A DNA stretch of 64,000 bases from Psammoneis japonica (taxonomy: Eukaryota). The stretch is from contig QPGO01000009.1 of assembly GCA_008632985.1 (NCBI GenBank), forward strand, positions 248,001 through 312,000, read 5' to 3'. The notes beneath the pieces are model-generated. The model was not told the origin of the DNA. It saw only the letters and a program-made list of their open reading frames with translations, and did not search any database. A program made the translations under genes and the position numbers. Positions 22,920 through 62,464 of the stretch are shown piece by piece (position 1 is the first letter of the stretch; every line of letters begins with the position of its first letter).

Positions 22920-23404
22920 CAGTGTTGGTTCGCGCGGTCGTGGTGGGTGGCGCGCGCGCTCCGATGTCTGCCGTCATCCGTTTTCTCATCCCCTCCCCCA
23001 ATCACACATGTGACAACGGGCTCTGGTCTGTGCCACATTGTCTCTGCTCTACTAGAGTTCGGTGGGGACAAGCCATGATGTTTGTTGAAAAATGAGACAT
23101 TGACACCCTCGACCCCATTTTGTGGTGCGTGCATTGCGTGTGTGTGAGGGACAGCAGCGGCAAAAGAGCTCTCTCTCCTGAGCAGCACAGAGTGTGCAAA
23201 AAAAGAGCACCAGCCAGCAGCCTGAGAGGACACAGACCACAAGAGTGTGATTCTTCTCCATCTGGTGTGGAGGCACCAAGGCCAAGTTTCATCCTTCTGG
23301 TTGCTGTTGCCATTTGCCAAGAGCAAGATTTCAGCCAGCATCCTCGCGCCACACAGAAAAAAAAACTTGTCGCAAAAAACAGGTGCAGAGGTTGTGCGAG
23401 GACA

Positions 23405-23440
<36 letters not shown>

Positions 23441-23530
23441 CAAATTTTGCAGGGCAGTTCTCTGATGTTTGTCAGTTCTTTGAAGAAGTTGAGGACACCA
23501 ACAACAACTCTCTGCTCACTCAGCATGTCA
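22920..23530. other. Short TpA-depleted island with a (CA)n microsatellite (23408-23439) between divergent PAS-like genes
   Basis: The ~600 bp has essentially one TA cluster (~23050), while the flanks have normal TA content. The CA run is pure. Confidence 0.7.
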
Positions 23531-40826: not shown

Positions 40827-43169
40827 TTAACGCGAATGACTTGGCGAGGCCATGGGTGAGTCATCAGGCGAATCCATACTGGGCGAAAAGGCGACAGCGT
40901 CCTTGCCATCCTTGCCGTCCTTGCCGTCCTCACCGTCCTTGCCATCCTCGCCGTCTTTGCCGTTCTTGCCATCCTCGCCGTCCTTGCCGTCCTTGCCATC
41001 CATGCCGTCCTTGCCGTCATCACCGCTGGAACCGTCCTTGCCGTCGACGCCGTCCTTGCCATCTTCACCATCCTTTCCGTCCTTACCGTCGACGCCATCC
41101 TTGCCGTCCTCGCCATTCTTGCCGTTCTTGCCGTCCTTGCCGTCCTCGCCGTCGTCGCCATCCTTGCCGTCAACGCCGTCCTTTCCATCGTCGCCACTTG
41201 ATCCGTCCTTTCCGTTGACGCCGTTCTTTCCGTCCTTTCCGTCCTCACCATCTTCGCCATCCTTGCCGTCCATGCCGTCCTTGCCGTCGGCTCCGTCCTT
41301 GCCGTCCTCACCATCCTTTCCGTCGGCACCGTCCTTGCCATCCTCACCGTCGGCGCCGTCCTTTCCATCGGCGCCGTCCTTGCCATCGTCGCCGCTGGAG
41401 CCGTCGGCGCCGTCCTTGCCGTCCTTTCCGTCCTTGCCGTCGTCGCCATCTTCGCCATCCTTGCCGTCCTTGCCGTCGACACCATCCTTGCCGTCAGCAC
41501 CGTCCTTGCCGTCGGCGCCGTCCTTGCCGTCGTCGCCACTTGAACCGTCCATTCCGTCTTTGCCATCCTTTCCGTCGGCGCCGTCCTTGCCGTCGGCACC
41601 ATCCTTGCCGTCATCACCGTCCTTTCCGTCCTTACCGTCGGCACCATCCTTGCCGTCATCGCCATCGGCACCGTCCTTGCCGTCGGCACCGTCATCGCCG
41701 TCCTCACCGTCCTTGCCGTCGGCGCCGTCCTTTCCGTCCTTGCCGTCCTCGCCATCTTTGCCGTCCTTTCCGTCGGCGCCGTCCTTGCCGTCATCGCCAC
41801 TTGCGCCGTCCTTTCCGTCGGCGCCGTCCTTGCCGTCATCGCCGTCCTTTCCGTCGGCACCGTCCTTTCCGTCATCGCCATCTTTTCCGTCCTTTCCGTC
41901 GGCACCGTCCTTTCCGTCATCGCCATCCTTTCCGTCCTTGCCATCATCGCCGTCTTTGCCATCCTTTCCGTCGACGCCATCCTTGCCGTCTTCGCCATCC
42001 TTGCCGTCGGCACCGTCCTTGCCGTCGGCACCGTCCTTGCCGTCATCGCCACTTGAGCCGTCGGCACCGTCCTTGCCGTCCTTTCCGTCAGCACCGTCCT
42101 TGCCGTCATCACCGTCCTTGCCATCGTCACCGTCCTTGCCGTCCTTTCCGTCGGCACCGTCCTTTCCGTCCTCGCCATCCTTTCCGTCGACACCGTCCTT
42201 TCCGTCGGCTCCGTCCTTTCCGTCGGCACCATCCTTGCCGTCATCGCCACTAGAGCCGTCCTTTCCGTCGGCACCGTCATCACCATCTTTCCCGTCCTTT
42301 CCATCGGCACCGTCCTCGCCATCTTTCCCGTCCTTGCCGTCGGCACCGTCCTTGCCATCGGCGCCACTTGAGCCGTCGGCACCGTCCTTGCCGTCTTTGC
42401 CGTGCCTGCCGTCGGCACCGTCCTTACCATCTCTGCCGTCGGCACCACTAGAGCCGTCCATTCCGTCCTTTCCATGTCTTCCGTCTCGGCCATCCCTTCC
42501 GTCCTTGCCGTTTCTGCCGTCCCTTCCATCGTGGCCGTCTTGTCCGTCGACACCGTTCCTTCCATCTTTGCCATCCTTTCCGTTCACACCGTCTGCTCCC
42601 TTTTCTCCCTTCTTTCCATCTTTACCATCCTTTCCGTCGTGGCCGTCCTTCCCATCTTTGCCATCTTTTCCGTCTTTACCATCCTTTCCGTCTTTGCCGC
42701 GATCGCCCTTTACTTTCCAGTAGACGTACGTTTCCGAATTGCTGCAATCGCTCATACCAGAGACCAAGCGGATGTACTTGTCCATCTTCATACAGACATG
42801 AACGACACCTCCCATGTACATTCCTGGTCCAGAACCTGAATGAGATTCCGGAGAAAGCCTCGTCTCCGACTTTCCAAGATGACGACGACGCATGCTTGTC
42901 TTCTCTTGAGGTTGTTGGACTTCTCCGCTAAGATCAGAAGCACTCAAGTGGACATACTGCTCGTAAGAGCTGCAGCCGTCTCTACTTCCGACAAAGCGAA
43001 CATCCTTGTTGTTTGCAACACATCCATGGATCGAGCCGCTCACACTCAAACTGCGAAGTTGGCGAATGTCGTTTTGCGGGCCCGGTCCGCGAAGGCCTCC
43101 TGTCTCAGCGCCTTGCAAAGGGGCGGCCAAAAGCGCCAATAGCGCGAACTTTTGAACCAGCACTTTCAT
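40827..43169 (-). CDS. Secreted collagen-like protein with ~200 uninterrupted proline-free Gly-X-Y triplets (GKD/GAD/GED/GDD)
   Basis: Signal peptide MKVLVQKFALLALLAAPLQG, two small Cys-pair modules, then Gly at every third residue from ~42712 to ~40900. Synonymous codon variation between repeats supports coding on the minus strand. Confidence 0.85.
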   Translation of the reverse strand: MKVLVQKFALLALLAAPLQGAETGGLRGPGPQNDIRQLRSLSVSGSIHGCVANNKDVRFVGSRDGCSSYEQYVHLSASDLSGEVQQPQEKTSMRRRHLGKSETRLSPESHSGSGPGMYMGGVVHVCMKMDKYIRLVSGMSDCSNSETYVYWKVKGDRGKDGKDGKDGKDGKDGKDGHDGKDGKDGKKGEKGADGVNGKDGKDGRNGVDGQDGHDGRDGRNGKDGRDGRDGRHGKDGMDGSSGADGRDGKDGADGRHGKDGKDGADGSSGADGKDGADGKDGKDGEDGADGKDGKDGDDGADGKDGSSGDDGKDGADGKDGADGKDGVDGKDGEDGKDGADGKDGKDGDDGKDGDDGKDGADGKDGKDGADGSSGDDGKDGADGKDGADGKDGEDGKDGVDGKDGKDGDDGKDGKDGDDGKDGADGKDGKDGDDGKDGADGKDGDDGKDGADGKDGASGDDGKDGADGKDGKDGEDGKDGKDGADGKDGEDGDDGADGKDGADGDDGKDGADGKDGKDGDDGKDGADGKDGADGKDGKDGMDGSSGDDGKDGADGKDGADGKDGVDGKDGKDGEDGDDGKDGKDGKDGADGSSGDDGKDGADGKDGADGEDGKDGADGKDGEDGKDGADGKDGMDGKDGEDGEDGKDGKNGVNGKDGSSGDDGKDGVDGKDGDDGEDGKDGKNGKNGEDGKDGVDGKDGKDGEDGKDGVDGKDGSSGDDGKDGMDGKDGKDGEDGKNGKDGEDGKDGEDGKDGKDGKDAVAFSPSMDSPDDSPMASPSHSR

Positions 43170-44114
43170 GTTGATTCTGTAAAGAGCGGGAAACATGCAC
43201 GAGAGTGTGAGTGACAGAGAGGGACATGGGCTCAGCCATCAAGGGACGAACAAAGACGAACAAACACATCGTCATTGTGATCATGTGATCATGCACTTTC
43301 GCGCCAGAAGCGATGCCGGTTGCAGACAGACGGTGATGCGAGCATGCACGCCGGCCGGCTCGTGTGCGCGAACGTTCACGACACGATGTGGGTCTTGTGA
43401 GTCGAACTATTCGAAGATACAAAACATATCTTTCATCCCAGACCACTGCCGGTACCGGTTGGATAAGCACTATGCAGCACTGTGCACAATGGCATGAGCG
43501 ACGTCTCCAAATACACAAGGAGACTAGAACGCCTCGAAAGCGCGCGATGTGAGTCTGGAGAGTCGACCTATCCGGAAGATCCATAATATCTTTTCTTCCC
43601 GGACCACAAACGGTTCGACAAGCACTTCGCCCTGGCTGTGCATAATGGAATGAACGACGTCTTCAACGACACAACCCTAAGGAGCCTCGGAAATCCACAT
43701 CCACGAGGAAGTCTTCAGCGCATATTGACAACGAAGAAACAAGTTGGAGAAATGGGAGGGCGACAGGGTCACCCACGGCACCGAAAGAGCTATCACAGCG
43801 ATGGAAAGCAGCGAACCGTCTCTTCGTGGACCAATCGGCACTCATCAGGATTGCGCAGTCACTTTGACGATGAGTACAACCATTGCTCTTGCTCACCTTC
43901 ACCTGTTTAGCGGTAGTTCAACTCTTCAATCTTACGATCAAAATGTGAAATTGTGAGAGGCGAGTGCGTATGCGGGATTTTTGGCTGGTTCGTGTAGCCA
44001 TTCGACGAATATCTTTATCGTGGAAGCTGCCGGGACTCTCAAAATTTTCGAAGTACAATTTTGGCCATAACAATAATTTTGTATAAAATTTTATGAGCTA
44101 AAAGCTTCTTCAAC

Positions 44115-44825
44115 GGGCTAATATATTTTTGAACGGAAATATTTGCTAATTCATATATAATCATATGAATAGTTCACATTAAACACGACGAATCGTGAAA
44201 AGAATTTTGATACTACTAAGAACAACGGAGAATTTGTGTCAGACATATTCGACGATAATAGTCGAATGAAGAACATCACAAGATATAACGGAGAACTTGT
44301 ATCGCCTTTTGTAGCTAATATTTTCTGCAACGGAAATTCTGTACTTGGAACAACGGGAAATTTGGCATCGAATCTTGTCGCGCGGCCTCCTTTCCGTGAC
44401 CCCCATCTTTAGCGTGCACAAAATTTTGGCGCTATGATGGATTCTTACGTGGAAGATTCAACATCTACCTCAATAAAGGAGGCTGATATCATATTTGTGT
44501 AGCTAATATTTTCTTCAACGGAGATTTCGTTCTTTCCACCAATCAGAAGTCTTCTCTGATGAATCTTGTTTCAAATGGTTCTACGTGGCGAAGAAGTGTC
44601 TTCCAAGACTGTCAGAGATTTGTGCAGCTAACATTTTCGCAAATTATGTTCTTTCCACCAATCAGAAGTCTTGTCGGACGAATCTTGTCTTAAATAAGTC
44701 TACGTGCCGAAGAAGAAGAGGCCTCTGGATCGGCTCGGATGGGGATGGGGGGTCTTGTACGTACAGCATGTGGCAATCCCCAACGTCTTCTGCCACAATG
44801 CACTTTTCTGCACAACGGAAATTGC
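44115..44825. repeat. Diverged direct repeats at the left edge of the large depleted block
   Basis: GCTAATATTTT...CAACGGA motif at ~44118, 44314 and 44501. GTTCTTTCCACCAATCAGAAGTCTT...GAATCTTGT...CTACGTG(G/C)CGAAGAAG at ~44529 and ~44647. Confidence 0.65.
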
Positions 44826-46399
44826 CATTCCACTGCACGAACTTCGGTCAGACATTGAGTGACATCATCCCCGCGCCCCAGTTTGATTGCCGCTGTAGTT
44901 GTGCTGATTCTGTTGTTTCTTTTGCCCCTCAAGAGCGCGGCACAGTGAGCTGTTTTTTAACTTGCAAGGGCTTGGGATGAAACACCCTTCTCCTTCACAA
45001 CAGCTGGTGCTGCAGCTTTCAATCTCTGAGCTGCTTGCGCAAGAGTGACAGGGGCACAAGCAGCGGCTGTGCGAGGCCTCGCTTTGGCAGAGGCAACAGG
45101 CAGCACTTGCACGATGGTCGATGCGGAACATGGTCTGCAAGCAGCCATTGTTGGCACAAGCTCTTTTTCTGTCAAAAACCTTGCCCCCTGAACAAGCTCA
45201 CCAGCACATCACAAGCTCTTTGCTGCCCCCAGCAGCGAAACAGAGGTGGCAACCCAGCCGCCGCCAGCCTCACCCGCAGCCGCTTTTGGTCTTCTTGCCA
45301 CATGTTTTTGAGCTCCAAAAAAGCTCTTGTGTGACACAGGTTGAGTTTGGCATGGCGCAGCACTGCTCCACAAAGTGCCAGAGCCATTGCTTGAGAGAGA
45401 CAGCACCAGATGGAATGGGGTGGCAACAAATGGATCAGACTTTTTTGACTTCAAACAAGAGCAACCCTGTTTGCAGCAACAAGCCCAAACCAAGGCAAGC
45501 ACCAGCACTTTGGCTCCTGGAGGAGAGGTGCAAAATGCTCAAGTGCACAGCCACGTTTTCAAAATTGCCGCGGCTGAAAGAGCTGCGCTGCGCAGAGCTC
45601 TTGCAAATTTGGAGTGGTGAGCAGCGCATCTCTCAGTCACATTTCTTGATCCAAGAATCTCGCATCTTTTTTGAAGCTGTGTGCAATTCTTGCCATGCCA
45701 GCTGTTTCCCAGAACAATTGCTGGGAGAAGTTGTGGTCTGACACAGCTCTTTTTTCTGCAGCTCTGAGTGAGGTTGAATGCAAAGCGTCAGCAGCTGCTG
45801 CCTCCCATGATGTTGTGTGCTCTTTTGCAAGATCTTGCTCCATGGTGAAGGTTTGAAGCAAGTGGCCTGTGGCAACAAGCTTGTCTTCTGCCAAGCCCAA
45901 CCCTCAAAATGTGGTCATCTGGTCTGCTTTTTCTTCTGCCAGGCCCGCCCCCCCAAAGTTCAGCCTTTGAGACAACTTTTCTTCTGCCAGGCTTGCCACC
46001 CCAAACACAGCGACTGTGAGCCAGCATGTTGGGAAATCTCAAATGAGCCAACTGTGTGGGAGCACTCAGAGCTGTTGGCAAGTCTGGATGGTCAGTTTTT
46101 AACTGAGCTGCACCTCTCTTGGCCCCGCGGCTGCCACCCTGTTTGCCCTTGTTGAGAGCCAGCCTCAACTGCTGCCACATTTTGCCAACTCAGCGACACA
46201 TGCTCTCACTGCTCCCTTGCCTCTCACTGGTCTTTCTGTGTGCCCCCAGTTGCTGAGGGCCACCCCAAGAACCTCTTTGGACTTTTTTAGACTCATGTGC
46301 TGCAACATGCAGGTCAAGTGACTCCTCGTTCTTCTTGACATTGTCAATCTGCACAGCAAGGCACCCTTTCTGCTGTTGACCCCCCTGGCAGGTCACAAG

Positions 46400-48640
46400 A
46401 AATGTGTGCCCTTTGTCAAGCTGCAGCTCCACATGATGGGAGCTTGCAGAGAGTGCCAGCATTGCTTGGCTGGGGTCCACCAAAGACTGCCAAAGCTCTC
46501 AGCTTGCAGCTGTTGCATTGTCTGGTGGTGCCATCATGGGACCCCTGCACTCTTGAGTTGGGAACATCAAATCTGCTCCTGTTGGAGACAAGGTGATGTG
46601 GGGCCACAAAACCAAAACATCAACCTTGCAATGCCCAGCAACAGCTCTTGAAGTCTTGCCACAGACACTGTCAGTGTCCTCTGCTGGCAGCTGTTGGGTT
46701 GGTTGGCACCATCGAATCCTTGCATTCTGGAGTTTGGAGACTTGCTCAAGTCTGCTCATGTTGGGGCCAAGGTGATGTGGGGCCACAATGTCACAAGATC
46801 AATTTTGCAACACCCAGCCACACTTTTCAAAGTCCCCCTGGAGTCCACCAAACACTGCCAGTGTGTCCTTTGTCAGAAGTTGTTGGGATGGCTGGTGCTG
46901 TCATGGGGTCCTTGCACTCTGGAGTTGGGAAAGTCAAGTCTGCTGCGGTTGGGGGCAACATGACACAAGGCCACAAGGCCACAAAACTGACCTTTCAATG
47001 CTCAACCACAGCTCTCAAAGTCACACCTGGAGCCTGCCAGACACCAACAGTGCCCTCAACTTGCAGTTGGGAGGCTTGCTCATGTCATCATGTGCCCTTT
47101 CACTCTGGAGTTTGGAGGCTCAAGCAAGTCTGCTGCCAATGGGGACCAGAGATGATGTGGGGCCACAACACCACAAGACCAGCACAGTTCTCAAAGCAAT
47201 GCCTGGGGTCCACCAGAGACAACCAATGCCCTCAGCTTGCAGCTGCCTGTCAGGTTGGTTGGTGCCATCATGGGATTCCTGCACTCTTGAGTTGGGAAAG
47301 TCAAGTCTGCTGCTGCTGGGGACAAGGCAACATGGGGCCACAACACCACAAGATCAACCTTGCAATGCTCAGCCACAGTTCTCCAAGTCTTGTCTGGGCT
47401 TCACCAGACACTGCAAGTGTCCCCAGCAGCTTGCTGTTGTCAGGTTGGTTGGCGCTGTCATGGGGGGGACCTCTGACTCTGGAGTTTGGTGACTCAAGTC
47501 TGCTCCTGTTGGGGACAAGGTGACATGCTGCCACAACACCACAAGATTGATCTTGCAATGCCCAGCAACAGCTCTTGACATCTCATCTGGGGTCTGCCAG
47601 ATGCAGCTGCTGGGTTGGTTGTTGGCACCTTCATGGGATCCTTGCACTCTGGTTCTGGGAAGCTCAAGTCTGCTCCTCCTGTTGGGACAAGGTGACATGG
47701 AGCAATCACACAAGAAAGGTGCTGCACTGCTCAACCGTGGTGGTTGTTGCAGTGTCACCTTGGCCAGTGCTGTCATGGGGTCCTTTCATTCTGGAGTTGG
47801 GAAAGTCATCTCAAGTCTCTGCTGGCGGCGGTGGTGACAAGGTGACATGGGGCCACAACACCACAAGATCAACCTTGCAATGCTCAGCAACAGCTCTCAA
47901 AGCATTGTCTGGGGCCCAAAAAGGACTGCCAGTGCCCCCCGCTTGTTGCTGTCAGGTTGGTCAGTGCCATCATGAGATCCCTGCACTCTGGAGGTTGGAA
48001 GTTCAAGTCTGGCATTGTTGGGGACAAAGTGACATGGGCCACAACACCACAAGATCAGTGCATTGCAATGCCCAGCAGCAGCTCTGAAAGTGTTGCCTGT
48101 GGTCTGCCAGATGCCACCAGTGTCTTCATCTTGCAACTGCTGGGTTGGTTGGCAACACCACCATGCAGCCCTTTTGCATGCAAAGTTCTTGGGAAGTTCA
48201 AGTCTGCTCCTGCTGTTGGGACAACATGACATGGGGCCACAACCGCCAAGACAGGCCTTGCTCTGCTTGACTGTGGTGGTTGTTGCAGTGCCACCTGGGA
48301 TCCACAAGAAACGCAGCCAGTGCCCTCAGCTGCACGTTGTCTGCTTGGTTGGTGCCATCATGGTGGGTCCTTTCATTCTGGATTTGGGAGTTTGAAGCTT
48401 GCTTCTGACTGGGAGGATGCAAAAGGGCACTGCAGCTGTGCAACACCAGCCTCACACTGCTCAATGCTCAGTCAACCACAGCTCTTGGAGTGTCACCTGG
48501 GGTCTGCCAGAGACCACCTGTGCCCTCAGCTTGCTGTTGCTTGTTGGCTGGGCTGGCTGGTGCCATCATGGGGCTGCTTTTCTCTGGAGCTGGGAAGTTG
48601 AAGTCTGCAACAACCTTCTGGGGACAAGACTGAATTGGCA
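46400..48640 (+). repeat. Diverged tandem array of ~175-195-bp units (family B), about 12 copies
   Basis: GCACTCT(T/G)GAGTT...CAAGTCTGCT...GACAAGGTGA...GGGCCACAACACCACAAGATC anchors at ~46547, 46722, 46914, 47101, 47281, 47475, 47645, 47787, 47983, 48374 and 48580. Confidence 0.85.
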
Positions 48641-50469
48641 TGGGCAGCTTCTTGTTGAGGAGGAGGAGGAGGAGGAAAAGGAGGAGGAGAAGGAGGAACA
48701 TGTTGGCAGGAGGAAGTGCTGCAGCTGCAGCGCCCCCTGTCTCTGGGGGCTGCTGCTCTGGCTCTTTGTGGGCACACATCCAGCAACATGGTTGTGCTGT
48801 CTGAGACCACCTGCTCAACCAACTCAACAACCCCAACCCTGCAAGTTTCAACCATGATGAGAAGCAACATCAACAAAAGTTGTTGCATGCATGTGGATCA
48901 GCTGCAAAGATCAGCTGCAGTGCAGCAGCCCCACAGACACAAGCACTGGAGACAAACAAAAAAGCTGTGTGGGCCAGCACAAATGTGAAAATTTCTTTCT
49001 CAACAAGAGCTGGCCAAGATCACAAAAATGAAACATGCGCCAGTCTCTTTTGAAAACAGACATGCTGCACTTGGCTGAAGCAGTGCTCAGCACCCGGCAC
49101 CCAGCTGCCAAAAACAAATGACAACTCACAAGCAAAATGCGCTGGCAGCGAAGACCAGCTGCACAACAAAGTGCTTCATTCAAGTTGACCCAAACAGTTT
49201 GAAGCTTCAAAAACAAGTGCAATGAGAGGCCTTTTAAAAAAAATGACCACTTTGTCTGGAAAATGTCGTTGCTCTTGTTTAGAATCCATTCTTTCTTGTC
49301 AAGAATCCTGCTCTCTTAACAAGGGTTCATTGATGCTGCACAAATGCATTTTGACAATTTTGTTTCAACATGCCAAGTGGGATTTAAGACTTAAAATGAA
49401 TCAGTTTCACTCTGAATGCAGTCTTGATGATCAGCGAACAATTGTCATTTTGGAATCCGCCAACAATCAAAACAACATTCCAAGCAGGAAATGAGTCTCA
49501 ATGAAATCTGTTGTGCTCTGATGTGCACGTCTCATCCAGCATTTGCTGACTGCAATTCACCTGCATTGTTCAGTTCTGACAAACAATGAAGCTCATTTGC
49601 GCTGATGACTTCACAATGCACAGTTGTTTTGCTGTTTAATTTCTGGTTTGTGTCAGCTCTAACATGTCATTTCCACACTAAAAGAAAGGCACTGTCTTGT
49701 TTCCTGTTCCTCGTCCATGTTGTTTCTTTTCCCTTGCAAGTTCCCTTTTGTCCTCCATTGCCAACACACCATGTTGTCCTGCACTTGCAGAGGGTCGATC
49801 CCCTCCAATCACTGTCTCTCCATGGTCTGTCTCAGAAGTGTCCGGCAGCTGTTGCAACCCCACTCTTGCCTCTTGCCCATCTCTTTTCTTGCCCACGGCC
49901 TTTCCTGAAACCTGAGAAGACAGTGTGCAAATGTTCTTCAGTGTTTGGCATTTCTGTTGTGTTTGACCTGCTTGTCAAACTGTTGCTGCTCACCTTTTTC
50001 CATCTGCATCTCCATCACTCTCCTCTGCGCTCACTTGCTGTGTTGTCACAATGCCTGTGTGCAATGTGAGATGATTCCTGTTTGGTGCATGTCTGTCATG
50101 TTCGCACAGCTCATCACACTGCTGCTGCTGCTCACCTTTTTTGCATTCCTTCCCCCCTGACTCTCTTGTGCACTCACTTGCTGTGTCGCAACGATGCCTG
50201 TGTGCAACGTGCAATGTTTCCCATCAGTGCAAGTTTGTGTGCCTCACTTGTCCCAGGTCACTGTCTCTCTGTCTCATGCCTTGTGTCCCACATTTCCCCC
50301 TTCTCCTCTGCAACTCCACCTCCTCTCCCCGCCACTCTCTCCCTCATGGTCTTGGCTCTCCCGTGTGTTTTTGTGCTTTGTGTCGTGTGAGGAAATGATG
50401 ATGGCTGATGTTTTTGCAGCAATGTTGAGCCTGTCTGCCTGGTGATTCCTGCCAGCATTGGTTTTTAAG

Positions 50470-52700
50470 TGACAATTTTTTTAAATTCCATGCTCACATT
50501 CAGTTTTAAAGGTTTGAATGATTTGAAACAACTTGGTGAATTGTCCAGTCATCAAGGTTTTGCACATGTGTCAGCAGTTGGTCAACCCCTCATTTTTCAT
50601 CGTGTCAATGTGTTCTTGTTAAGAAGCAAATTGTCGCAGTCTTGCTGTGCAGGTGGAGCTGGCAAATCTCAAGCTTCATCACGTCAATGTGTTCTTGTTG
50701 AGATGCAAAATTTTCACAGTCTTGCTGCGCAGGTGGAGCTGGCAATTCTCAAGCTCAATCTCAGCCACAGGAGCACAGCAGCAGGAGCCCTCAGAGAAAC
50801 CAAGGCTGTGCTGCCACAGCTGCTGCAGCACCAGCTGATGGTCCCAACCCAGCAACTGCTGCCACTGTTGCTGCCTGCACAATGACAAAGCCAGCGCCCA
50901 TCATGCCAATGTGGGCTCGCACCATTCTCCAGCAATTGAAACCAAAAATCTTGAATTTCTCATGCACTGGTGTGACAAAATTTCCTGCAATTGCTGTTGC
51001 ATGCCCTGGCACCCAACGGAGTCTCCCACAGCCATCCTGCGATGACAAGTGGTCACTTGCAAGCTGTCACTCAGATGGCTTCATGGTCTCTGCACAGGTG
51101 TGTTGGCTGGGCCAAAGAAGCCCCCAGTCATGTCAGAGAGAAAAGGGGCCACATTGACACAAGACAAGCCTTTGCTCCCCAACCAAGGTTGTTGCCAGCT
51201 CTTGGGCTCCTGGGACACAATGGAGTCACCCAAGGCTGGCAAAAGATGTCTGGTCTGCTGAAGCAAGCTCATCACATCAGAAAGAAAAGTGGCTGCATCT
51301 GCCCAAGACAAGGCTTTTCCTTCCCAACCACCATTGTTGTTGCCTCCTCCTGGACCCAACAGAGTCTCTCTTGTGCCCGCCCCCAGACCACTGAGTGCTT
51401 GCACTGTCACACAGATGGCTCCCTTGTCTTTCTTGCAGGTTGAGCCACCAAAAGCCATCCCCAGGTGATGGAGTGTTTGCGCTGTCATGCAGACAGCTCC
51501 CTTGTCTTTCTTGCAGGTTGAGCAGCCACCAAAAGCCGTCCCAAGACAATGGTGGAGTGCTTGCACCATCACACAGATGGTCCCTTGTCTTTGCAGGTTG
51601 GCTGGTGCCTGCACACCTTTTGCAGCTGGGCATCTTCTTGTGTGGAGGAATCCAGCAAGGGGCTGCTGCTGCTGCCCAAGACAAGGCTTGCAGCTTCCAA
51701 AATCAAGAGTGCAAAGACACCACTGTCAGTTGGGCCAAGAACCCACTCAACAACTGCAGGCTGAGTGCATTCTTTGGGGTCTCCATGTCATGATGCAGGT
51801 GGCAGCAACTCAAACCAATGTGCATTGATGGCAATGATGATGATCTGGCTTGGCATTTGGCAAATGTTTGCTGGAACATGGGGTCACCACCACTGCATGC
51901 TCCACTTCAGTTCTTTCTTGAGTGGCCTTGGCCTGTGCACCATTCATGGCTGTGCCGTGCACCCCTCGGCAAGCCTGTTGCTCCAGTTGGAGACACCAAG
52001 ACATGCAACCAAACTCACAACCAGACAAGGCTTTTCCTTCCCAACCATCATTGTTGTTGCCTTCTTGAGGACCCAATGGAGTCTCTTGCAAATGTCCCAA
52101 GACAACACAGAGTGCTTGTGCTGTCACACAGCACAAGCCCCTTGTCTTTCTTGCAGCAGGATGGTTCTTGGCTGGGCCAAACCCAGTCATGCCAGAGAGA
52201 CAAGGTGCCACACCGACACAAGACAATGCCTTTGCTTTCCAGCCATTGTTGGTGTTGCATTCTCTGGGACCCAATCAAGTCATCCAAGGCCACCCCAAGA
52301 CAACAAAGCACTTGCACTGTCGCACACATGGCTTTCTTGTTTTTGCAGGTGGGGTGGCTGGGCCAAGAAACCCAGTCATGTCAGAGAGACAAAGGGCTGT
52401 GTGGACACAAGACAAGGCCTTTGCTTCCCAACCATTGTTGTTGTTGCATCCTCTGTGACCCACTGGACTCCTCCAATGCCACCTCAAGACAGCTGTGAAC
52501 CTCCTTTGCCAGACTGACACGCCCTGTTTGCCACATCTGTGGGCCTGGTGTTTTCACACCTTGTGAAGCTGGGCATCTTCTTGTGTGGAGGAATCACGCC
52601 TTGGGCTGCTGCTGCTGCCCAAGACAAGGCTTGCAGCTTCCAAAATCAAGAGTGCAAAGACACCACAGTTGGGCCAAGAACCCACTCAACAAATGCACAT
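50470..52700 (+). repeat. Second copy of the family A array and flank, inverted relative to 12.3-14.3 kb
   Basis: CCCAGTCATGTCAGAGAGACAA and GCAGCTTCCAAAATCAAGAGTGCAAAGACACC are reverse complements of motifs at ~13170 and ~12530-12560. Flank AATGTGTTCTTGTTGAGAT (50687) mirrors ATCTCAACAAGAACACATT (14184). Confidence 0.85.
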
Positions 52701-54374
52701 GAGTTGGACAAACCAGCCCCTTGTCGCAAAGTGATCACAAGACGCAGCCAACAGGATTCAAGGATGTCATTGAGTCACTGGCTGCTTGCATGATCACTCA
52801 ATGTGGGCTTGCAAAGAGCCAAAAGCCAAGTCCATTGGCTTTCCCCAGCACTGAGGACAATCCATGCATCCCCAAATGTTGTTGCCTCAATGTGAGCCTG
52901 ACACATGCAGACCGGCTCAATGATGCTGCTCCTGCACAAGAGCTCGTCCAGGAGATGAAAGATCTGGTTGCACACTTTGAAAAGGATGCAGCCAAACTTG
53001 CACACAAGATGGCCTTGCATGAACTTGAAGTTGTGAAAACCAACCAAGTGCAAGAATTGGTCAATGCTGGCCTTGTTCTCTTCCAATTCTACATTGGCCA
53101 TGCAAAAGAATTCAAAGGCTCTGCAGACCCAACAACACATCAACTCAGTGGAGTGTCGCTTGTGCACTGCTTGTGTGACTCACTGCCATCAACTTTCCCA
53201 ACAGACTGCCCTTGAAACTTCTCCCAAAGAAATCATCAAGGAAGTCCAATGTCAACTTTGACATGAAGGACCTGTCAATCCCGCAGACAGCACCCCTCCC
53301 TCTGCTCAAGAGATCAAAGATGAAGACATGCAAACCCAAGAGGACACCACGTGCACTCAGGTTGCACCAGTGGCAAACTTGAACCCACTGCACGAGAGCA
53401 AATGCGTGACACACAAACTGTCAGCAGGGGAGAGAGTTGCAAAAACAGAATTGTTCAGAGAGATGAAACAGCAGCAATGGCTTTCCAAGCAGTGGCGCTG
53501 TTGCTTGCTTCATGAGATGCAAAGACCGTGCCTTGGCAAGTTTAAATCTGAGCAGCTCTTCCTGCTCTTCCCAGTGCTTCTCTTCCTGCAGCGCTGGGTG
53601 GGGGTGTGCTTGCCAAAGTCATTGTCAGGGTTCAGGCCAAAATGGAGAAAGAAGAGCACTGGAGATGCCTTTGGAAATGTCTTTGGAGAGTCAAGAAAAT
53701 GTCAAACAAGAAGAAGCAGGATGATGTGGACCGAAGCCTTCTCCTCGCTTCCGAGAACACATCTTTCCCGTTCGTCCAATCTGTTGGACACCACTCAGGT
53801 CATAAAACAGAATGGTGATGCCAAGCAAATTCTTCCATTGTCTGATGCCATTGCCCCCTTGTTTTCATTGACAGCATCATGCACCGCACTCCTTCGGCTG
53901 GCGTCTCTCTGAATTGAAGATGCTGCAGTGTTGAAGCCACTCAACAAACGTCTTGCATTTCAATTTGTGGCACCCAGAAGCTCCTTCAGCTGCTTCAACT
54001 GTCCTTGGCATTTCACTGCATTGCCCCCTGCTCTTGCACCCATGTTTCCAAGCTTTGTGGCCTGGAATCTCGAGTGCATGCCTTGTTGATTGCCTCGCAT
54101 TGGATCTCATGTCCTCAATGATGCTGCCACCTTGGGTGCACTCCCTGCGTTGGTGGTGGACACCTGACAAAGAAGGCACACCCTCCATGTGCTCGAGATG
54201 CCAGTTCCTGGCTTCCAACATGCCCGCCCCCTTGGTTGAAAAGCTCATTGCCACAACAGCCAGGAAAGCCAGAGGAGAAGGCTTTGGTGCACACTGCATT
54301 TGGCGTGAAAGATCCTTGCTCTTCACAGACCCCACTGAAGGCATGTCCAAGACAGAGTGATCTTTTCAAAACTG

Positions 54375-54879
54375 TCAACCCTTCAACCACCGGACTTGAG
54401 CAAATCTCCACGGGTGGAGATTTGCTCCCTTGCATCACAAATGCAGTGAGTGAAGCAATTTCAGATGTGGGCAATGTCAAATTTGCGCAATTTTGTTTTG
54501 GAGCGCGCACTCGCCAAAAATCTCGGGGAACCCTTTTTGCAATTTAGAAAGTTCAATGTCGACTTTTAACACCGGGTTTTTGCAAGCTGCATTTGTGAAC
54601 AGAGGAGAACCAAATCTCAACCTTTGACAATGTAGGTTGTCATGAACTGCTGTTGCAGACAGACCAACAATGCCACACCCTTGGAGCAAATCTCCGCCGG
54701 TGGAGATTTGCTCCCAATGAGCAAATGCACGTGGCGCACTTCATGCAGATTCTGTGTGACATGACATTTTTGTGCTGTGTTCATTGTGTCATTGTAAAAT
54801 TGCACGACACATCACACATCCTCAAGCAGAGCAAATCTCCACCCATGGAGACTTGCTCCCCTGGTGGTTGAAGGGTTGA
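54375..54879. mobile_element. piggyBac-like MITE (~497 bp, 54379-54875) with ~50-bp TIRs, three 30-32-bp palindromes and apparently mutated TTAA target-site duplications
   Basis: Left end TCAA|CCCTTCAACCACCGG...GAGCAAATCTCCACGGGTGGAGATTTGCTC. Right end GAGCAAATCTCCACCCATGGAGACTTGCTC...CTGGTGGTTGAAGGG|TTGA. CCC...GGG termini flanked by TTAA are the piggyBac signature. Confidence 0.75.
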
Positions 54880-57800
54880 GAAGAGATTGGAAAAAAGGAG
54901 TGTGAGCAAAGAAACAGAGTGGATGAATGAACATCAAAGCATGGGTCAGCGACAATCACAAATGGCTGATGCAAGACCACACAAGTGTGTGGCCGATGTT
55001 TCTCGCCACAAATCAAACACACACCAGCGCAAGCAAGACAGGGGATGCTTTTTGTGTCAATGCCAAAGAGACAACTGCAGCAGCATGCAACAGAGGAGAT
55101 GCATTGAACGAGTGCACATGAAAGCATGGATCATGTCAATTCCATGTTTTTTGGTGTTTCTTGTTGACACGAGAGAATGATGTTTCTCAACACAGCCCCC
55201 ACCCACAGCCTGCCCAAGACATGGGAAACTTTTCATGACCATGGTCAATCAATGTCAGCAGTGGGCATCATCAGAGGAAGTGAAATGCACGAACCACATC
55301 ATTGCGGCTGTTGGCAGTTGGCGTCGATGTGGTGTGTGGTGTGGTGTGAAAAAATGTGCGTCCGCCGACCGCGAATTGGGCCACGCAGGTAAAAAATGGC
55401 CAAATTGTTTGTGACTCAATGTTTGCAAAAATGCACAATTGACAACTGGACAGAGTTAGCACATTTGCAGCAACTTTGTTTGTCAGTGAGTTTCATGATC
55501 AAATTAAAACATTTGCAAGAATGCACCATTGACAAGTGAGAAAATTGAAGATTGGTGGACAGAGACAGCATGCATGCAACAATTTTGTTTCTCAACAAGT
55601 TTCATTCTTAATGAGCACCAAAACATGTTAGAGACATTGCAAAATGATGCAGGCAATGATCACCAGGCTGACTGGCTTGGCTCCATGGCAAAAGGCCCAT
55701 CACCACCACACGAAATGACAAAGAAACACAGGATGCATCCAAGCAGTGCACAAACAATGACAACATTGCAGGAAGGCACCAACAAAAACCAGGAGTCTTG
55801 CAGCCATTCTGCACACATGCCAGCAACAACAAAAATCCATGGGAAAGGCAAGAGGTCAGTTTGCAGCAAACAACAACAAACTGATGATGTGCTTTCTTTT
55901 GCAATTTCTTTGTTTCTTGAAACTCAGACAAGTCAACAAAAATGGCCAAGGATGACATTGTGCACAGGCCAGCAGCAGAAATGGCAGCATTGTGTCACAC
56001 TTGCCAAAGAAAACATGCCAAATTGACAACTTTTGTGCTGTTTTCTGCCAGGGATTGCTGTCACATCTCACAATGAGAAGTTGTCACAACAACTGACTCT
56101 CTTTGAAGCATGGAAGATTGGAGCATGATGAGATGTCAACACAGCCAAGACCACCAAGTTGTGGGGCAGACTGCCAGCAGAGACAATGGGGCAGAAAATG
56201 GGGTGGGGTGGCAGCAGAGGGGACAAAGGCAATGGAGAATGACAGCATGGAATGGCTGAGGGCATGCGCCAAATGTCAGATGTTGCCAGGGTGAAATCAA
56301 ACATCATCAGAAGCCAAAATTGCAAAATGTGCCAGCTGACAAATGAGCAACTCAAATTGTCAGCATTGTGCTCCAGCCAATGAGCAAGAACAGCTGGCTT
56401 GTTGATTGACACATGTGTGCGCATGCACAGAAATGAGCCATGCTTCAATTCATTGTTGTCTCCCACTTTTCTAACCCAGCTGGCAATTGACAATGCTCTG
56501 ACATTCAAAGTTGTTGTGCACTGCTGTGGTTGAGCTCAAAGCTGATCTTGTCAGGAGCCCCCTTGCACTGTGAAACCAAATCATTTCAAGAAGTCTGGCC
56601 TCCCACTTTGCCAACACAGTTGATTGTCAAAAGCCACTCATTTGCTGTCAACTGGCACTTGACAAGAGCACAAGCTTCTCATCAAGAAGCAAATTTCATT
56701 TCTGGGCCAGAGCCAACAACATTTTCCAGATGCGTGCAACATGGCCCACATGTGGTTGTGTGCTGCACACAATTTTTTTGTGCACAACTTGTGCGCACAC
56801 ATTGGCAATTGGCGCCACATCTTGTGCCTCATTCTTCTTGCAAACTCTCTCTTTTTCAGAAGGTGGGGCCACCACAACTGCACACAAACTTGCTGAGGTT
56901 CTGGAATGCACACATTTTCCTCAAAAGTGCACCCTTTGGTGTGTCCACAGAGCACACCTCCTGAGCACATGCCTGCAGCTGGCTGTGGTTTGCAAGCATG
57001 GGGGTTTTCCATGTGTCAAAAAATTGCCTCTTTCTCCATCAGCAGCAGCCACTTCTTTGCTGTTTGAAAACTCATGAAATTGCTGCAGAGTTTGTGGGTG
57101 CATCTTGCAGATTCCCACCCAGCTGACAAACAGCAGATGGCAGGCCAGCATGTGCCTTGTGGCGTGACCATTCCAGCAGAGGCAAAGGACAGGCAAGTCA
57201 GGTGTGTGTGCTGCATGAGCACCCAAGCAACTTGCGCTGGTCTCTTTGCCAAGCAGATGCGCTGCTGGCATGATTGTGTGCCACCTGAGAGCAAGCCTGC
57301 ATCACAAAGGTTGTGCACTCAGCTGCTCCCCAAAGTTGCACCAGCAAGAATTGAGACAACATGTGCAAAGCTGCGCGCATCACATGACACTCACCAAGAG
57401 GGTCCCAAGATGAGCTCAGAGCAAAGCCACATCTTTGTGAGTGGCAAATGGGGAACAAGTTTGCATGCAAAAGAGGAAACACACAATCTGCACAACTCAG
57501 TGTTTCTCAGCAAAGTGCAGCAACTCAGAAATGGCCCCACTCAAATGGGCAAACTGGCCAGAGTGGGCAGCTGCCTCTCCTGTCACTCGTTGTTCCCAGA
57601 AAGGGCCAGATGGTGCAGCTCAACAACAACTGAGTGAACACAAAGCAAGGAGCACCACACCCAACTCTGCACATGGTGCAGGGCATGTGTGTTGCTGAAA
57701 GCTGGGGGTTTCAGTGGGCAGCTTCCCTTGACTTGAACATGGTTTGCTGCCACACTCAAGTTGATGTGGCACCCCCAACAAAGAAGCTTTGCAACTTAAA

Positions 57801-60800
57801 TTTTCCACAGGGAAAGCATGAGATGCCATGTCTGCCAATGGTCTCATGTGGTGTGCCAGGCACCACTTTGGCTTTTAGAAAAAAAACAATGGTGGGGACC
57901 TTCTTCTCCAAGACTTGTCTGTTGCACAGTTGCTCACAGAGACACAAAATGACCAGCTGACAGCAACAACAAGAGAATCCCCAAAAGACCATCTCTTGAG
58001 ACACTGGACAAACTCCTTGAGAGGCTCCAGGAAGCTGGAGCTGAGGCAAGTTCCAACAAGTTGACAGTTTCCTGAGCTCACTCAGGAGCACCATGGACAT
58101 GAGGTGACAGGAGCCCATCAGCTGAAAAGTGCAGCATTGCGCACACCATGCAACTGGGGCTGGCAGCAGACACCAGCAATGCCTTGTGTCATTTGGCAGA
58201 TCTCCTCCTGCAGCAGGAAATGTGCGAGTTGGGAGAAGTGTGGGATGCTGTGCAAGCCCACACAACTTCTTGCACTCACTCAGCTGAGCAGGCACAACGA
58301 CTTCTTAGACACATGTCAACTGTGAGTGGCCTGCACATGAGGGCAGCACACTCAACTGACTGGCACTCCCAAAGTCATGATTGGTGAGCAAAAGCTCTGC
58401 ATGTGGTGATGCCACACACTGCACAGCATTTGCCAAGAGCCAAGATGAACTTGGAGCAAAGCTCTGCATTTGAGGATGAAGATGCTCACCTGTGTGCATG
58501 AAGTGAGTGCACAACTCATGCAGCCAAATGATTCATGGCAAAAACTGCTGACTCAGAAGCTGGTCTTTAAGTGCTGATGAGACAGCAATCTTTGCAACAA
58601 CTGCTCAGCACCCATCTCCTGGCAGTTTGGAGTGCAGCGCGCAAGAGGTTGGGGCAACTGAGCAAGCTGGCAAGCTCAAGAGCAAAAGGGTGCTGATTCA
58701 CAGTTGCAGTTGGTTGTGGCTGAGATGTGCAGCTGTGGCATTTGGACATCTGGCACCTCTTGCAAGATGACTTGTGAGCAAAACTTCCAAGTGGGAGGCT
58801 GGGTGCACATTGAAGACAAAGCATTGTCCTTCAATGCTGTCAAGTGTTTGCACAACATCTGAAGAAGAACTCTTGCTTGTGCACACCCAGATGATGTGTG
58901 CCAGTGCATCTGGGTGTCAACTTGGAGCAGCAACATCCCAAGACAATTGGCAACTGGCCTTTTGCTCAGCCATGCCCAGCCAAAGAACTGTGTTGCCTGC
59001 CATTGCAGAGATGCAGAAGGAGCTCAGATCTGTCTTCCTTGGGCAGCACTTTTCCACTTTTCCATGCAAGCACCCACTGGCAGCCCCTGCATGTGTTTCC
59101 ATGTGTGCTCTTGCGCTGATGTTGCCCTTTTCAGATGGCATTTTGATGGGTCCCCCAACACCCTTTTGCCCCCTTCTGCCATTGGTGCACCCTCATTTCA
59201 CCATGATGTGCAACAATTTTTAGTGCAAAATGACTGGCATTGATGCCTTGTGGCTTGCATGCTTGTTGTCTGATTTGACATTTTTTGCAGATTCGGTGCA
59301 GTTTCTGCACAGAATCCAGTGCAAATTCCACATGCTTCAGAAATGTCCACTGACAATCACAACATCTTCAATGCAATCAACTTCCATCCACACCCAAAAG
59401 CCCCCAACAACTTCTTTTGCTCCTGCCAGCTGCCCAAGTTCTTTGCCACATGTGGTGACAGCACTGCCCCTGTTGTGGTTCTTGCAAGTGTTTGGTTGGA
59501 TGAACCACCAGTGTTGCTTGACAACCATCCATTTGCTGTGTGGATTGGCATTTCTGCACAGGATTCAGCATCAATCTCATGTGAGAAAAATGTTTCTTCT
59601 GATGACCTTCTCATCACATCACCAAGACTTCCCATTTCATGCCTGCAAGTCCCAAACACACCCCCTTTTCCACTTGCTGGCCTGACAAGATCATTGCTCC
59701 TGGCAGCAAACTGTGCACTTTTGTTCCAGTGCACGCAAATGTGAAATTCAGCCAGTCTTTGTTGAAGACAAGACCTGCCCTCACAGAAGCAAGGCTTTCC
59801 CCCCAGAGTTTGCACTGACTTTGAATTCTCTGCTTGATGTGATTGTCCTTTGCTGCGGCAGTTTGGGTGCATTGAATCCTCTCCAAAAGAAAGCAACAAC
59901 CTCATTCTTGTGCAATTTTTCCCTGAACTGTTGTCTCCAGTGTGCGCAGCTGCAAAGTGGTGGCACATTGATTGGCTTGTTGCACAAACTTCTGCTGCAC
60001 CCCTTGCAGGGTGCTGCACTGGAAGTGTGGGTTGGCCAGCACTGGTGTTGCTGGACAAACAAGAGGCAATGACACTTAAAATTGGGTTTGAAATTTTGTT
60101 GTCTTCCAACAGGCAGCTGCTGCACACATGCACAGATTGTGAAAACCTTGTGCAAAGCACCCAATTCCAAGCTCGCCAAGGACATGCACTGAAGTGTTCA
60201 CCAGAGATGCCATGTCAAATGTCACCACTGTGCCAAGTGGAGACACAACCAGGATGGAAAAAGCAGAAAGAGCAAATGTGACAAGAAAGAGACAGAACTC
60301 TCCTGTGCATGGAGAGCATGCCAACATGCTGCAGGGCAATGTTGGCACTTGTCAACAAACAGGAACAAAGACCAAGTGTGACAGGGCTGACTGGTGTGCA
60401 AGCCCCGCCAGAGTTGTCTGTGCAAACAACAAGAATGGTGCATTGCACGCACAAGAGCTTGTTCCGTGACATGCGTGCACAGCCTGCCACCACGCAGATT
60501 GCACCCCCTGTCATCAGCCAGACATCTGGTGCTCTGTGACCCTTGTCATGGTGGTGTGTGCAGCATGCACTGTGCTGACAACTGGCAGATGCACCAGCAT
60601 GTGCACCCTGTGATGCGGCCCCTCTAGAGGCAAAGGACATGCACAGATGCTTGTGCTGCACACACAGGCTTGCATGGCTCACACTCATTTTGACAACTCC
60701 GCAAAGAAACCTGCATGATGAGGCATGCTGAGCTGCTGTCCAAAGAGCCATGCTGCCAAGCAAATAAAACCCAAGCACACAAAGCTTGCCAAGAGCCAAC

Positions 60801-61198
60801 AACAGACAAGATGAGCCTGAAGCAATGCTTTTTGTTCAAAAATGGCTGAAGAGAAGCTCGCTTGCGTGCATGAAGTGAGCACACAACTTGCAAAAAAAAA
60901 ACATTTCTCAGCCAAATGTGCCAACTCAGAAATTGTGTTGCAGCCATTGGCAACAACAGTGACATTTGCTGTTGCTGTCACAAACTCATTTCCAAATTTG
61001 GCACATGAGGTGCCAGAGCTGAAGTGCAGCCTTTTCAGGGCAGCTTGTGGCCATTTCCCTCATCTGCCATTGCACCTTCCTGTTGAGCCAGAGTTTTTAA
61101 GATGCCAGCCAGAGTTGACACAACAAACCTCTTGATTGATCAAACAATCTCAGAACTCAGATTGGCGAGGTTCCAAAATGACCCATGACAAACCAGTG

Positions 61199-61226
<28 letters not shown>
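61199..61226. repeat. (GT)n microsatellite
   Basis: Pure GT run read directly. Confidence 0.95.
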
Positions 61227-61229
<3 letters not shown>

Positions 61230-62464
61230 ACAGAGAAAAAACTCTTGCCCACTGTGGTCTGATGTCATGAAACGTGCCCACTCCATGACCCTTGAGATCT
61301 GAGACACACCATGTGAGCACAAATGGGAAATTTGAAGGCAACTGCAACATGTCATCTGGGCCCACTGTGGACAACTGTCTCAACTGCAAAGAGAAATCCA
61401 CACACATCACCCTCCTTGTGGTTGATCACACCTTGGCTCTCAGTCCAGGACACTTGCTTGCCTCACCCACACTGGCTTTCTTGTGTGCTGCTGCTTCCAG
61501 CTCCTCATGCTCCACCCTGGACCTGTGCTTCCTCTCTTCCACAGCTGTCTGCCTTCAACGCATTTCATTTCATGACAAACTCCCCACAATGCCCATTTCC
61601 ATCCACTGTGGCCATTTGGAAATCACAGTGTTTTTCCAATGTGTGTTTTTGCACTGTGTGTCACTCTGCTGTGTCCAAAGCATCAGCAAAGCTGTTGCCC
61701 AGTTGACAGCAGACTGGCTTGCCCAACATGCCCTGAAGCTCACTGCCCCCTCTCTGCCACACTCACTGCCATCCCATCCACCTTTCATGTGCAGCACTTC
61801 TTCACACCCCTTTGTCATCCTCTCTTGCTCCACACCCCTGGGCAATGCAGCACACGACTCCATTCTAGCCAGTGGAGAGAGCTGGCTGTTAACCTGCACA
61901 AAAAGGAAAAATTCTGCAGGCCAACACAATGCATGGTTGGAGAGACACCCAGTCTCGAACATTTCCATTTCAAGCGGTTTTGTGGCGCTAATGCAGGAAG
62001 ATGAGGTGCCAGCAGATGAACAGTTGGATTGAAAACTGTAAGACGAAAGGAACAAGGACAAATGTGACATTTTAAGAGCTTTACAACCATCTAATTTTGA
62101 TTGGAAGGAGAGGCTACAACCTTTCGCTGTGGTTTCAAGGCAACGAAGCCATCAGGGGGCGAATAGTTCAGCTCTCCATGGATGAAAAGAATTCTAGATT
62201 ACAGCCTTGTTCACCACAGAAGCAGCTCCCTACTCGAGCACAAAGAAGGACTCGTTCATCCAAACGCCAACATTTTCCTTGGTTGACCCACCAGTTCGGA
62301 AACGATGGCATTCGAGTCACTCGGAAAATCGACCATCACTACCTTTACGGGCATCAAACTTTTGTATTGCTCGCCGCTGGCTGGTTGAAGCAACAAATGG
62401 CCCGAAACCCAAATAGATCCACTCATTGACAGCCTTTAGTAGAGATTGCGTGATGCCTACTTTG

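Follow-up and report, generated by a model that had tools for sequence, protein, structure and literature searches.

Introduction

A natural A:T to G:C change at TpA in genomic DNA was first reported in 2026, in a preprint on Bigelowiella natans (10.64898/2026.01.13.699255) that describes TpA-to-TpG/CpA hypermutation of integrated DNA of nucleocytoplasmic large DNA viruses (NCLDV) and virophages. According to that preprint, 230 of the 231 de novo mutations found in two integrated viral regions of mutation-accumulation lines were A>G or T>C, all of them at TpA, almost no G:C changes were seen, and the mutation rate of the viral regions was about a thousand times that of the background. The same source counts 124 clusters in the genome that show TpA depletion and an enrichment of CpA plus TpG, and proposes an ADAT2-like protein as a candidate. 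It was the only report of TpA hypermutation of DNA found when the literature was searched for a flank rule or for joint loss of TA and CG; the terms 'context', 'flanking', 'trinucleotide' and 'CpG' do not occur in its main text, and its supplements list the mutated sites and may inform such a rule. Here we describe five blocks in a 64-kb window of contig QPGO01000009.1 (the window being the whole stretch of 64,000 nucleotides that was analysed, with positions counted from its first base) in which TA and CG have been lost to TG and CA block by block, with a hierarchy set by the 3' neighbour of the A, a choice of strand set by the flanking bases and an independent outcome in different repeat copies. 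The blocks have probably been brought near to completion by a transition process directed at TpA that acts on each strand independently, with the order T > C > G >> A for the base 3' of the A, and alongside which CpG is lost more slowly.

Several deaminases and one fungal process are used for comparison below. The bacterial TadA, which acts on A34 of tRNA-Arg, has mRNA off-targets at UACG, and mRNA editing of the fungal ADAT type shows U at −1 with A or G enriched at +1 and +3 (both as described in PMC10027721). Amphioxus ADAT2 is reported to deaminate both A and C in DNA, with a preference for GAA in the case of A and for TCG in the case of C (PMC10354150), and 5'UAG is given as the hot spot of ADAR2 (PMC10661471). 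Repeat-induced point mutation (RIP) has been described as changing C to T, mainly at CpA, and as raising TpA (PMC2621366).

Results

Five depleted blocks

Outside the blocks the observed/expected (o/e) ratio is about 0.6 for TA and about 1.0 for CG. The five blocks share one state, in which TA and CG are nearly gone and TG and CA are approximately doubled, with o/e ratios of 0–0.10 for TA, 1.5–2.5 for CA and TG and 1.0–1.5 for AA. The blocks, and the parts of the main block referred to below, are as follows (Y, pyrimidine; R, purine; no strand is assigned to any of them):

9700–15000: second depleted block; 5 residual TA (YTAR 4, ATAG 1)
17250–19200: partly depleted block; 10 residual TA (YTAR 5, YTAY 4, RTAR 1, RTAY 0)
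23000–23500: mini-block; 2 residual TA (CTAC, CTAG)
28600–30100: small depleted block; 4 residual TA (YTAR 2, GTAA 1, GTAC 1)
44900–61900: main TA- and CG-depleted block, TG and CA about doubled; 39 TA in 17 kb, compared with about 40 per kb outside
49200–61900: range within the main block to which the first-pass annotation of the window referred; 36 residual TA, 30 of them YTAR
49235–50620: cluster of residual TA, many at the junction of a T-run and an A-run; 12 of 12 YTAR (TTAA 9, TTAG 1, CTAA 2)
53090–55629: less advanced sub-region; 12 residual TA, of which 7 YTAR, with 5 of the 6 non-YTAR exceptions

Together the five blocks comprise 26255 bp, and they are compared with an outside reference of 35924 bp from which a collagen-like repeat at 40890–42710 is excluded. 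The right edge of the main block is sharp, falling within about 100–200 bp. All 17 of the one-kb intervals from 45001 to 62000 have Rho(TA) of 0–0.10 and Rho(CA+TG) of 1.62–2.05, and in 17/17 the values lie within the cluster thresholds of the B. natans preprint. Block 17250–19200 has a survival (the in-block count divided by the outside count scaled to block length) of 0.13 for TA and 0.44–0.60 for CG. TG and CA number 2942 and 3018 in the blocks and their per-kb values lie within about 0.7–1.3 of each other, so that these counts give no sign of one-strand targeting. Terminal repeats of the 17-kb block were looked for in the repeats listed, 25 inverted pairs and 20 direct families, none of which includes a pair across its ends.

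Residual TA sites

The range 49200–61900 covers the largest block except for its left-hand quarter, and the first-pass annotation had claimed that the TA sites left in it are mostly YTAR. The 36 sites comprise 18 TTAA, 7 TTAG, 3 CTAA and 2 CTAG, that is 30 YTAR, together with five RTAR, one YTAY and no RTAY, whereas the 1435 TA outside comprise 218 YTAR (15%), 384 YTAY, 361 RTAR and 472 RTAY (Fisher odds ratio (OR) for YTAR against the rest 27.9, p = 1.0e-18). Over all five blocks the 60 residual TA are divided into 45 YTAR, 8 RTAR, 6 YTAY and 1 RTAY (OR 16.7, p = 1.9e-23). Each of the 20 YTAR positions named in the annotation proved to be a TA of that class to within one base, and its five named exceptions are present as well (53090 CTAC, 53803 ATAA, 54633 GTAG, 54795 GTAA and 55390 GTAA), with a further one, 60765 ATAA, absent from its list. 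TAT, TAC, ATA and GTA, which it had described as nearly absent, occur 0, 1, 2 and 3 times, respectively, among the 36 sites, and the opposing outcome that it had raised, a depletion uniform across contexts, is rejected (likelihood ratio test (LRT) chi2 = 145, df 3, p = 2.6e-31).

Had the residual sites arisen by random back-mutation, their flanks should be distributed like those of TG and CA in the blocks, of which 23% are Y__R (the gap standing for the dinucleotide), and the residual TA are far from this (binomial p = 4e-17 for all blocks and 5.5e-15 for 49200–61900). Homopolymer runs do not explain the excess of YTAR either: 32 of the 60 residual TA adjoin TTT or AAA, and once sites with upstream TTT or downstream AAA are dropped the bias persists, at 19/28 compared with 169/1275 outside (p = 1e-10). 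The share of YTAR is 15% in TA-rich and in TA-poor outside windows alike, the bias stands under three ancestor models, and the excess holds even against an assumed ancestor with 50% YTAR (p = 7e-5).

Survival depends on the base 3' of the A

For all blocks, survival by class is 45 of about 159 for YTAR (28%), 6 of 281 for YTAY (2.1%), 8 of 264 for RTAR (3.0%) and 1 of 345 for RTAY (0.3%), and that of the mixed classes equals the product of the half-site survivals, 0.53 × 0.054 = 0.029. A model in which both As of a TA survive independently, the chance of each being governed by the base 3' of it, was fitted by maximum likelihood and gave an acceptable fit (G = 12.7), with per-strand survivals of 0.82 when the 3' base is A (bootstrap 95% range 0.63–1.02), 0.28 for G (0.19–0.38), 0.078 for C (0.04–0.13) and 0.019 for T (0–0.04). 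The corresponding values for A, G, C and T are 1.04, 0.27, 0.045 and 0.023 in the range 49200–61900 alone and 0.57, 0.30, 0.12 and 0.015 in the other blocks alone, and the order A > G > C > T is also obtained with TA-rich outside windows or a flat model as the ancestor. The survivors are enriched in A at +2 (66/120) and +3 (60/120), compared with 25–29% outside.

The data support a graded rule that states the pattern better than 'YTAR' does, with TAA almost untouched, TAG protected to a moderate degree and both TAC and TAT heavily affected. The earlier claim that YTAR is only relatively protected holds in this refined form, with estimated rates of 3.97, 2.55, 1.26 and 0.20 for T, C, G and A 3' of the A. 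That TAY (RTA on the other strand) is the preferred target, as had been suggested, is supported by three analyses drawing on different parts of the data, namely the classes of survivors, the asymmetry of the products and the TG/CA disagreement between paralogues.

Products of the lost sites

Survival alone cannot separate a hit on the A that has Y after it from a hit on the A whose own T has R before it, whereas the products can. A rule set by the base at +1 predicts that YTAY goes to YTGY and RTAR to RCAR, and the opposite rule predicts YCAY and RTGR. The ratio (YTGY+RCAR):(YCAY+RTGR) is 1968:1127 in the blocks compared with 1469:1295 outside (OR 1.54, p = 6e-16). The products expected under the +1 rule outnumber the others in every one of the five blocks (5/5), with ratios of 1.54–2.06 per block and of 0.97–1.32 in six outside chunks. 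When the 16 NTGN classes were predicted from the outside composition and the survival-derived rates, the +1 rule gave a correlation of r = 0.62, compared with 0.38 when no rule was applied and 0.03 for the opposite rule.

In block 17250–19200, which has lost its TA and kept about half of its CG, the asymmetry is 122:72 (p = 0.009 versus outside). The paralogue partners of residual CG sites show no clear bias between TG and CA, either at Y__Y sites (CA 6, TG 4, one tie, one with none) or at R__R sites (CA 2, TG 2, none 2). Both observations argue against an origin of the asymmetry in CG loss.

Repeat copies and sequencing contigs

The blocks carry diverged repeats, namely units of 180–190 bp at 46.4–48.6 kb, a 190-bp array at 12679–13885 and relatives of the latter at 51.0–52.7 kb. 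Two sets of units inside the main block, neither with a strand assigned, were used along with that array in the comparison of copies:

46400–48650: array of diverged 180–190-bp units, used for TG/CA disagreement between copies
50990–52700: repeat units, reverse-strand homologues of the 190-bp tandem array 12679–13885, used for disagreement between copies

The tandem units of about 180–190 bp at 46400–48650, 12679–13885 and 50990–52700 are 60–85% alike, and the arrays at 12.7–13.9 kb and 52.0–52.7 kb are reverse-strand relatives of each other.

TG in one copy faces CA in another in 276 site pairs, and CG faces TG in 39 and CA in 36. A double change of the TG/CA kind between copies indicates that an ancestral TA or CG was resolved independently in each copy. 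Counted per unique site, the opposite state is found in a paralogue at 99 of 248 R__Y sites, 76 of 374 Y__Y sites, 56 of 294 R__R sites and 47 of 314 Y__R sites, so that disagreement is about twice as frequent at R__Y sites (Fisher OR against the rest 3.0, p = 4e-12, for sites that are not independent). If the ancestor had the outside composition, all classes should disagree about equally often under a process blind to context, whereas the +1 rule predicts that Y__Y and R__R sites disagree about half as often as R__Y sites, and the observed pattern agrees with the latter. At the residual ATAG at 13812, the paralogue partners are CA in five cases and TG in one. No unmutated copy was found inside the window, where there are 0 matches between the blocks and normal DNA.

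Contigs from a public sequencing run, X1 (depth about 60), show 0 differences over 43500–46648 and 1 over 55728–59094 (3.1 and 3.4 kb), from which the blocks are not an assembly quirk; X1, in which the share of the window's words is 0.80, is maybe the window's own source and so not fully independent. It is the only run listed as containing the window, and no RNA run is among those listed. Among the 40 of 1357 differences from other copies that were listed, 34 are transitions and there are five adjacent pairs of TG facing CA, and in several of these 40 a TG or CA of the window stands opposite a TA or CG in the other copies. One of the listed differences, cTAt facing cTGt at 54001, fits the rule, and another, at 55212, is ambiguous. 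Parts of the main block are multi-copy in X1 (46.1–48.7, 50.0–52.6, 53.3–55.9 and 59.1–60.4 kb), and the parts at single-copy depth (44.8–46.1, 56.5–58.5 and 60.4–61.7 kb) are as depleted as the multi-copy parts, with the caution that summed contig depth does not equal copy number; duplication alone is therefore unlikely as the trigger. Contigs from a second run on the same sample, X2, match only 53.3–55.3 kb, at about 84% identity, and then continue into TA-rich sequence unlike the window; this match may be a less mutated or an unrelated copy of one block element. From a third run, X3, no contig aligned to the window.

CpG loss in the same blocks

In the blocks 9700–15000, 17250–19200, 28600–30100 and 44900–61900, CG is lost along with TA and more slowly. 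Per one-kb bin, survival is 0–0.20 for TA and 0.05–0.60 for CG (0.21 overall), and TA survival is the lower of the two in 25 of 27 bins and about equal to that of CG in the other two. The survival of CG differs with the base 5' of the C, taken per strand, being 0.74 for G, 0.36 for A, 0.42 for C and 0.34 for T (LRT p = 1e-15), so that GCG is spared, and residual CG are enriched in GCGC (49/321). The sub-region 53090–55629 has the highest residual CG of the main block, with a survival of 0.29–0.37. In that CG is lost to TG and CA, the blocks match the footprint of CpG decay of the kind that follows cytosine methylation, and the loss of CpG would be a second, slower process.

Genes and other features of the window

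The window is eukaryotic and has intron-split genes. The annotated open reading frames (ORFs) are:

790–2049: EIPR1-like WD40 ORF, for which a protein atlas returned eukaryotic clusters only
7951–8983: DEAD-box helicase, in pieces
9726–10220, minus strand: ORF with a clear Mpv17/PMP22 domain (E = 8.8e-11), inside the left edge of the first block, which is free of TA and retains CG at 45%

A Pfam search with 16 long ORFs gave no match, and among 131 block ORFs of at least 95 amino acids only Mpv17_PMP22 scored above the cut-off, other matches falling below it. The ORF with this domain reflects either a spread of the process into a host-type gene or a gene copy that was part of the target. For the ORF at 59360–60214 (minus strand, 285 amino acids), HMMER found one hit (E = 6e-4) among 1.84 billion representatives. 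Long open frames run across the tandem units, such as one of 416 amino acids at 12967–14214 (minus strand), without a Pfam match, and may simply reflect the missing TAA and TAG.

The array at 40890–42710 consists of about 75 copies of 18-bp units, is CG-rich, TA-poor and strongly C- and T-rich on the plus strand, and differs in nature from the depleted blocks; the term 'collagen-like' is taken from the unit alone. The short stretch 43000–43400 has 2 TA in 400 bp, a normal CG count (33) and raised TG plus CA (72); it may be coding, or else a target that is only partly affected or at a very early stage. Normal, TA-rich DNA at 6647–7194 has 1.9 copies of a 295-bp unit that are 96% identical, so this recent duplication is not TA-depleted. 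Three copies of a near-perfect palindrome of about 30 bp, with arms 93–94% complementary, lie within 470 bp at 54398–54866, in the least depleted sub-region of the main block.

Discussion

Comparison with known systems

The blocks resemble the clusters described in the B. natans preprint in their kilobase scale, in the loss of TA and gain of CA plus TG, in that both strands are hit and in that most of their ORFs are without annotation. They differ in extent: the NCLDV region reported there lost less than half of its TA, and here the loss is near total. In comparison with the main text of the preprint, a parallel loss of CpG and a hierarchy of 3' neighbours are resolved here, and TA makes up 4.0% of dinucleotides in the normal DNA of the window, where the figure given for the nuclear genome of B. 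natans is 6.0%. The window may accordingly derive from a gene-dense region of that genome or from a different organism.

The site preference deduced here, T at −1 and a pyrimidine at +1, most closely resembles that of bacterial TadA as described for its mRNA off-targets, which likewise have a strict 5' U and, following the edited A, a pyrimidine (PMC10027721); the resemblance is one of site preference. The T at −1 follows from the definition of the footprint, the pyrimidine at +1 is favoured in the data, and a G at +2 would be masked since CG is itself lost. TadA differs in acting on RNA hairpin loops with C and then G after the A, whereas here the DNA is genomic and T ranks at or above C at +1; the comparison with TadA made in the first-pass annotation stands as a likeness only. 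Fungal editing of the ADAT type shares the U at −1, and its A or G at +1 is opposite to the rule found here. The action of amphioxus ADAT2 on both A and C (PMC10354150) recalls the joint loss of TA and CG, but its preference for A is GAA, and the loss of CG here spares only GCG, with no special preference for TCG.

Hyperediting by ADARs has in common with the blocks an A-to-G outcome and a favoured 5' U. ADARs also accept a 5' A, whereas AA is not depleted in the blocks. The UAG hot spot contrasts with the relative protection of TAG, whose per-strand survival is about 3.5 times that of TAC and about 15 times that of TAT, and the substrate here is DNA. Fungal RIP is similar as a block-wise transition hypermutation of non-genic DNA that follows a dinucleotide rule and hits copies independently. 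It differs in direction, since TpA is destroyed and CpA and TpG are created in the blocks (as the o/e ratios given above reflect), and parts at single-copy depth are as depleted as multi-copy parts. Error-prone polymerase activity at WA motifs was also considered, but the blocks show no depletion of AA, and this reading was dropped for that reason.

Proposed mechanism

In the mechanism that we propose, both strands would be acted on independently, and the change of the A in 5'-TA-3' would depend on the next base. RTAY, with two good targets, would vanish first; YTAY would go to YTGY and RTAR to RCAR; and YTAR, with two poor targets, would linger, above all as TTAA inside junctions of a T-run and an A-run. 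The chemistry would be a deamination of A to inosine in DNA, one strand at a time, by a putative enzyme for which a 5' T is essential and which senses the base on the 3' side. The residual TA would be original survivors and would not have been regenerated, and the process may be the one measured in B. natans. The earlier preference for an enzyme over compositional drift fits the sharp block edges and the mutation-accumulation data, the latter being linked to the window by likeness of footprint.

Several points weigh against this interpretation. The base attacked is not given by the sequence, which yields only the equivalent pair 'A followed by Y' and 'T preceded by R', and the link to the B. 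natans experiments would likewise be one of footprint alone. Survival rests on stand-ins for the ancestors of the blocks (normal DNA, TA-rich windows or a flat model), and for RTAY on a single site. No tetramer model fits well in absolute terms (best chi2 296), xTGC/GCAx being commoner and ATGA/TCAT rarer than any model predicts; the true ancestors were surely unlike the normal DNA of the window, and CG loss feeds the same products and is not cleanly separable from TA loss. The comparisons between copies count tandem units that are not independent, and the informative cases among the 40 of 1357 differences listed are few and mixed, with tTAt facing tCAt at 54108 opposite to the rule.

Alternative explanations

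The residual TA might have been newly made, by G>A or C>T change at TG or CA, in a balance between creation and editing in which the rule would still be that of the mutator and the rate ratios would be far larger. We regard this as possible and yet rather unlikely. The density of TTAA in the range 49200–61900 equals that of normal DNA, as the survival of 1.04 for a 3' A reflects, the background spectrum described in the B. natans preprint is AT-biased, and the number of TA per TG plus CA precursor, calculated from the counts, is 0.032 for Y__R, 0.0045 for the mixed classes and 0.0007 for R__Y, as regeneration would have it. However, the non-YTAR exceptions cluster where residual CG is highest (53.0–55.4 kb) and the less depleted block 17250–19200 keeps 4 YTAY among its 10 sites, so a time course of survivors fits better than a steady state; on the single RTAY site the two models are not separable. 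The context might also come from repair, if a lesion such as hypoxanthine arose at every TA and were removed better when a purine, above all A, follows. The footprint is a net outcome, and a context-dependent deaminase and a context-dependent glycosylase or endonuclease would leave the same pattern, per strand and dependent on the 3' neighbour; a strict 5' T with a graded 3' effect is nevertheless the usual form of a deaminase site preference (UACG for TadA and UAG for ADAR2 in the sources cited), and we hold repair to be an improbable origin of the rule. The ranking of RTAY as most and YTAR as least depleted would be given just as well by a symmetric, dimer-like reader that recognises the RTAY tetramer on both strands at once in place of independent hits. 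The flank, however, decides which strand is changed, as expected of half-site recognition on a single strand. The mixed-class rate of 3.65 is also near the mean of the extremes, 3.55, and away from the geometric mean of 2.71, at which about 36 mixed sites should remain where 14 are seen, although this calculation is weak because there is only one RTAY site; a tetramer reader is in our judgement distinctly improbable.

The frequency of residual TA next to TTT or AAA, and the enrichment of A at +2 and +3, could also be expected if the sources of the blocks had been rich in TTAA and in junctions of T-runs and A-runs, or if sites had been kept for a function, such as target sites or signals. Ancestral make-up or selection of this kind is very improbable, in that the bias remains among sites away from runs and is found in five separate blocks and in single-copy and multi-copy parts alike; nor would it explain the asymmetry of the products or the excess of TG/CA disagreement at R__Y, and none of the natural DNA compared, with its outside windows at 15%, nears 75% YTAR. 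With some technologies, modified bases could give rise to a block-wise loss of two self-complementary dinucleotides, through miscalls for instance. An artefact of sequencing or assembly is, for all that, hardly credible here: the X1 contigs agree with the window (with the reservation made above as to their source), and swaps between TG and CA among copies are not expected from miscalling.

Implications

More speculatively, and on the whole unlikely as we judge it, a single TadA/ADAT2-like deaminase that acts on DNA, takes A as well as C as its target and works strand by strand on marked chromatin might erase the two self-complementary pyrimidine-purine steps, TpA (by way of TAY) and CpG (except GCG), and so drive foreign, repeated and neighbouring single-copy DNA to an end state with TG and CA only. 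If so, the flank rules would be the enzyme's own fingerprint, and the system would extend beyond one species should the window come from an organism other than B. natans.

We regard the blocks as another instance of a process that has just been described, to which they add a new and testable flank rule, and not as a new kind of system. The rule T > C > G >> A, applied strand by strand, is a concrete fingerprint for which the de novo mutations already published offer a check; it speaks against a site preference like that of ADARs or of the fungal ADAT-type editing and for one like that of TadA, and it guides the choice of oligonucleotides for testing candidate deaminases. It also implies that sites of the TTAA type are the last TAs left in old targets, and blocks may thus be staged by age, with RTAY lost first, the mixed classes next and YTAR last, as CpG decays more slowly alongside.

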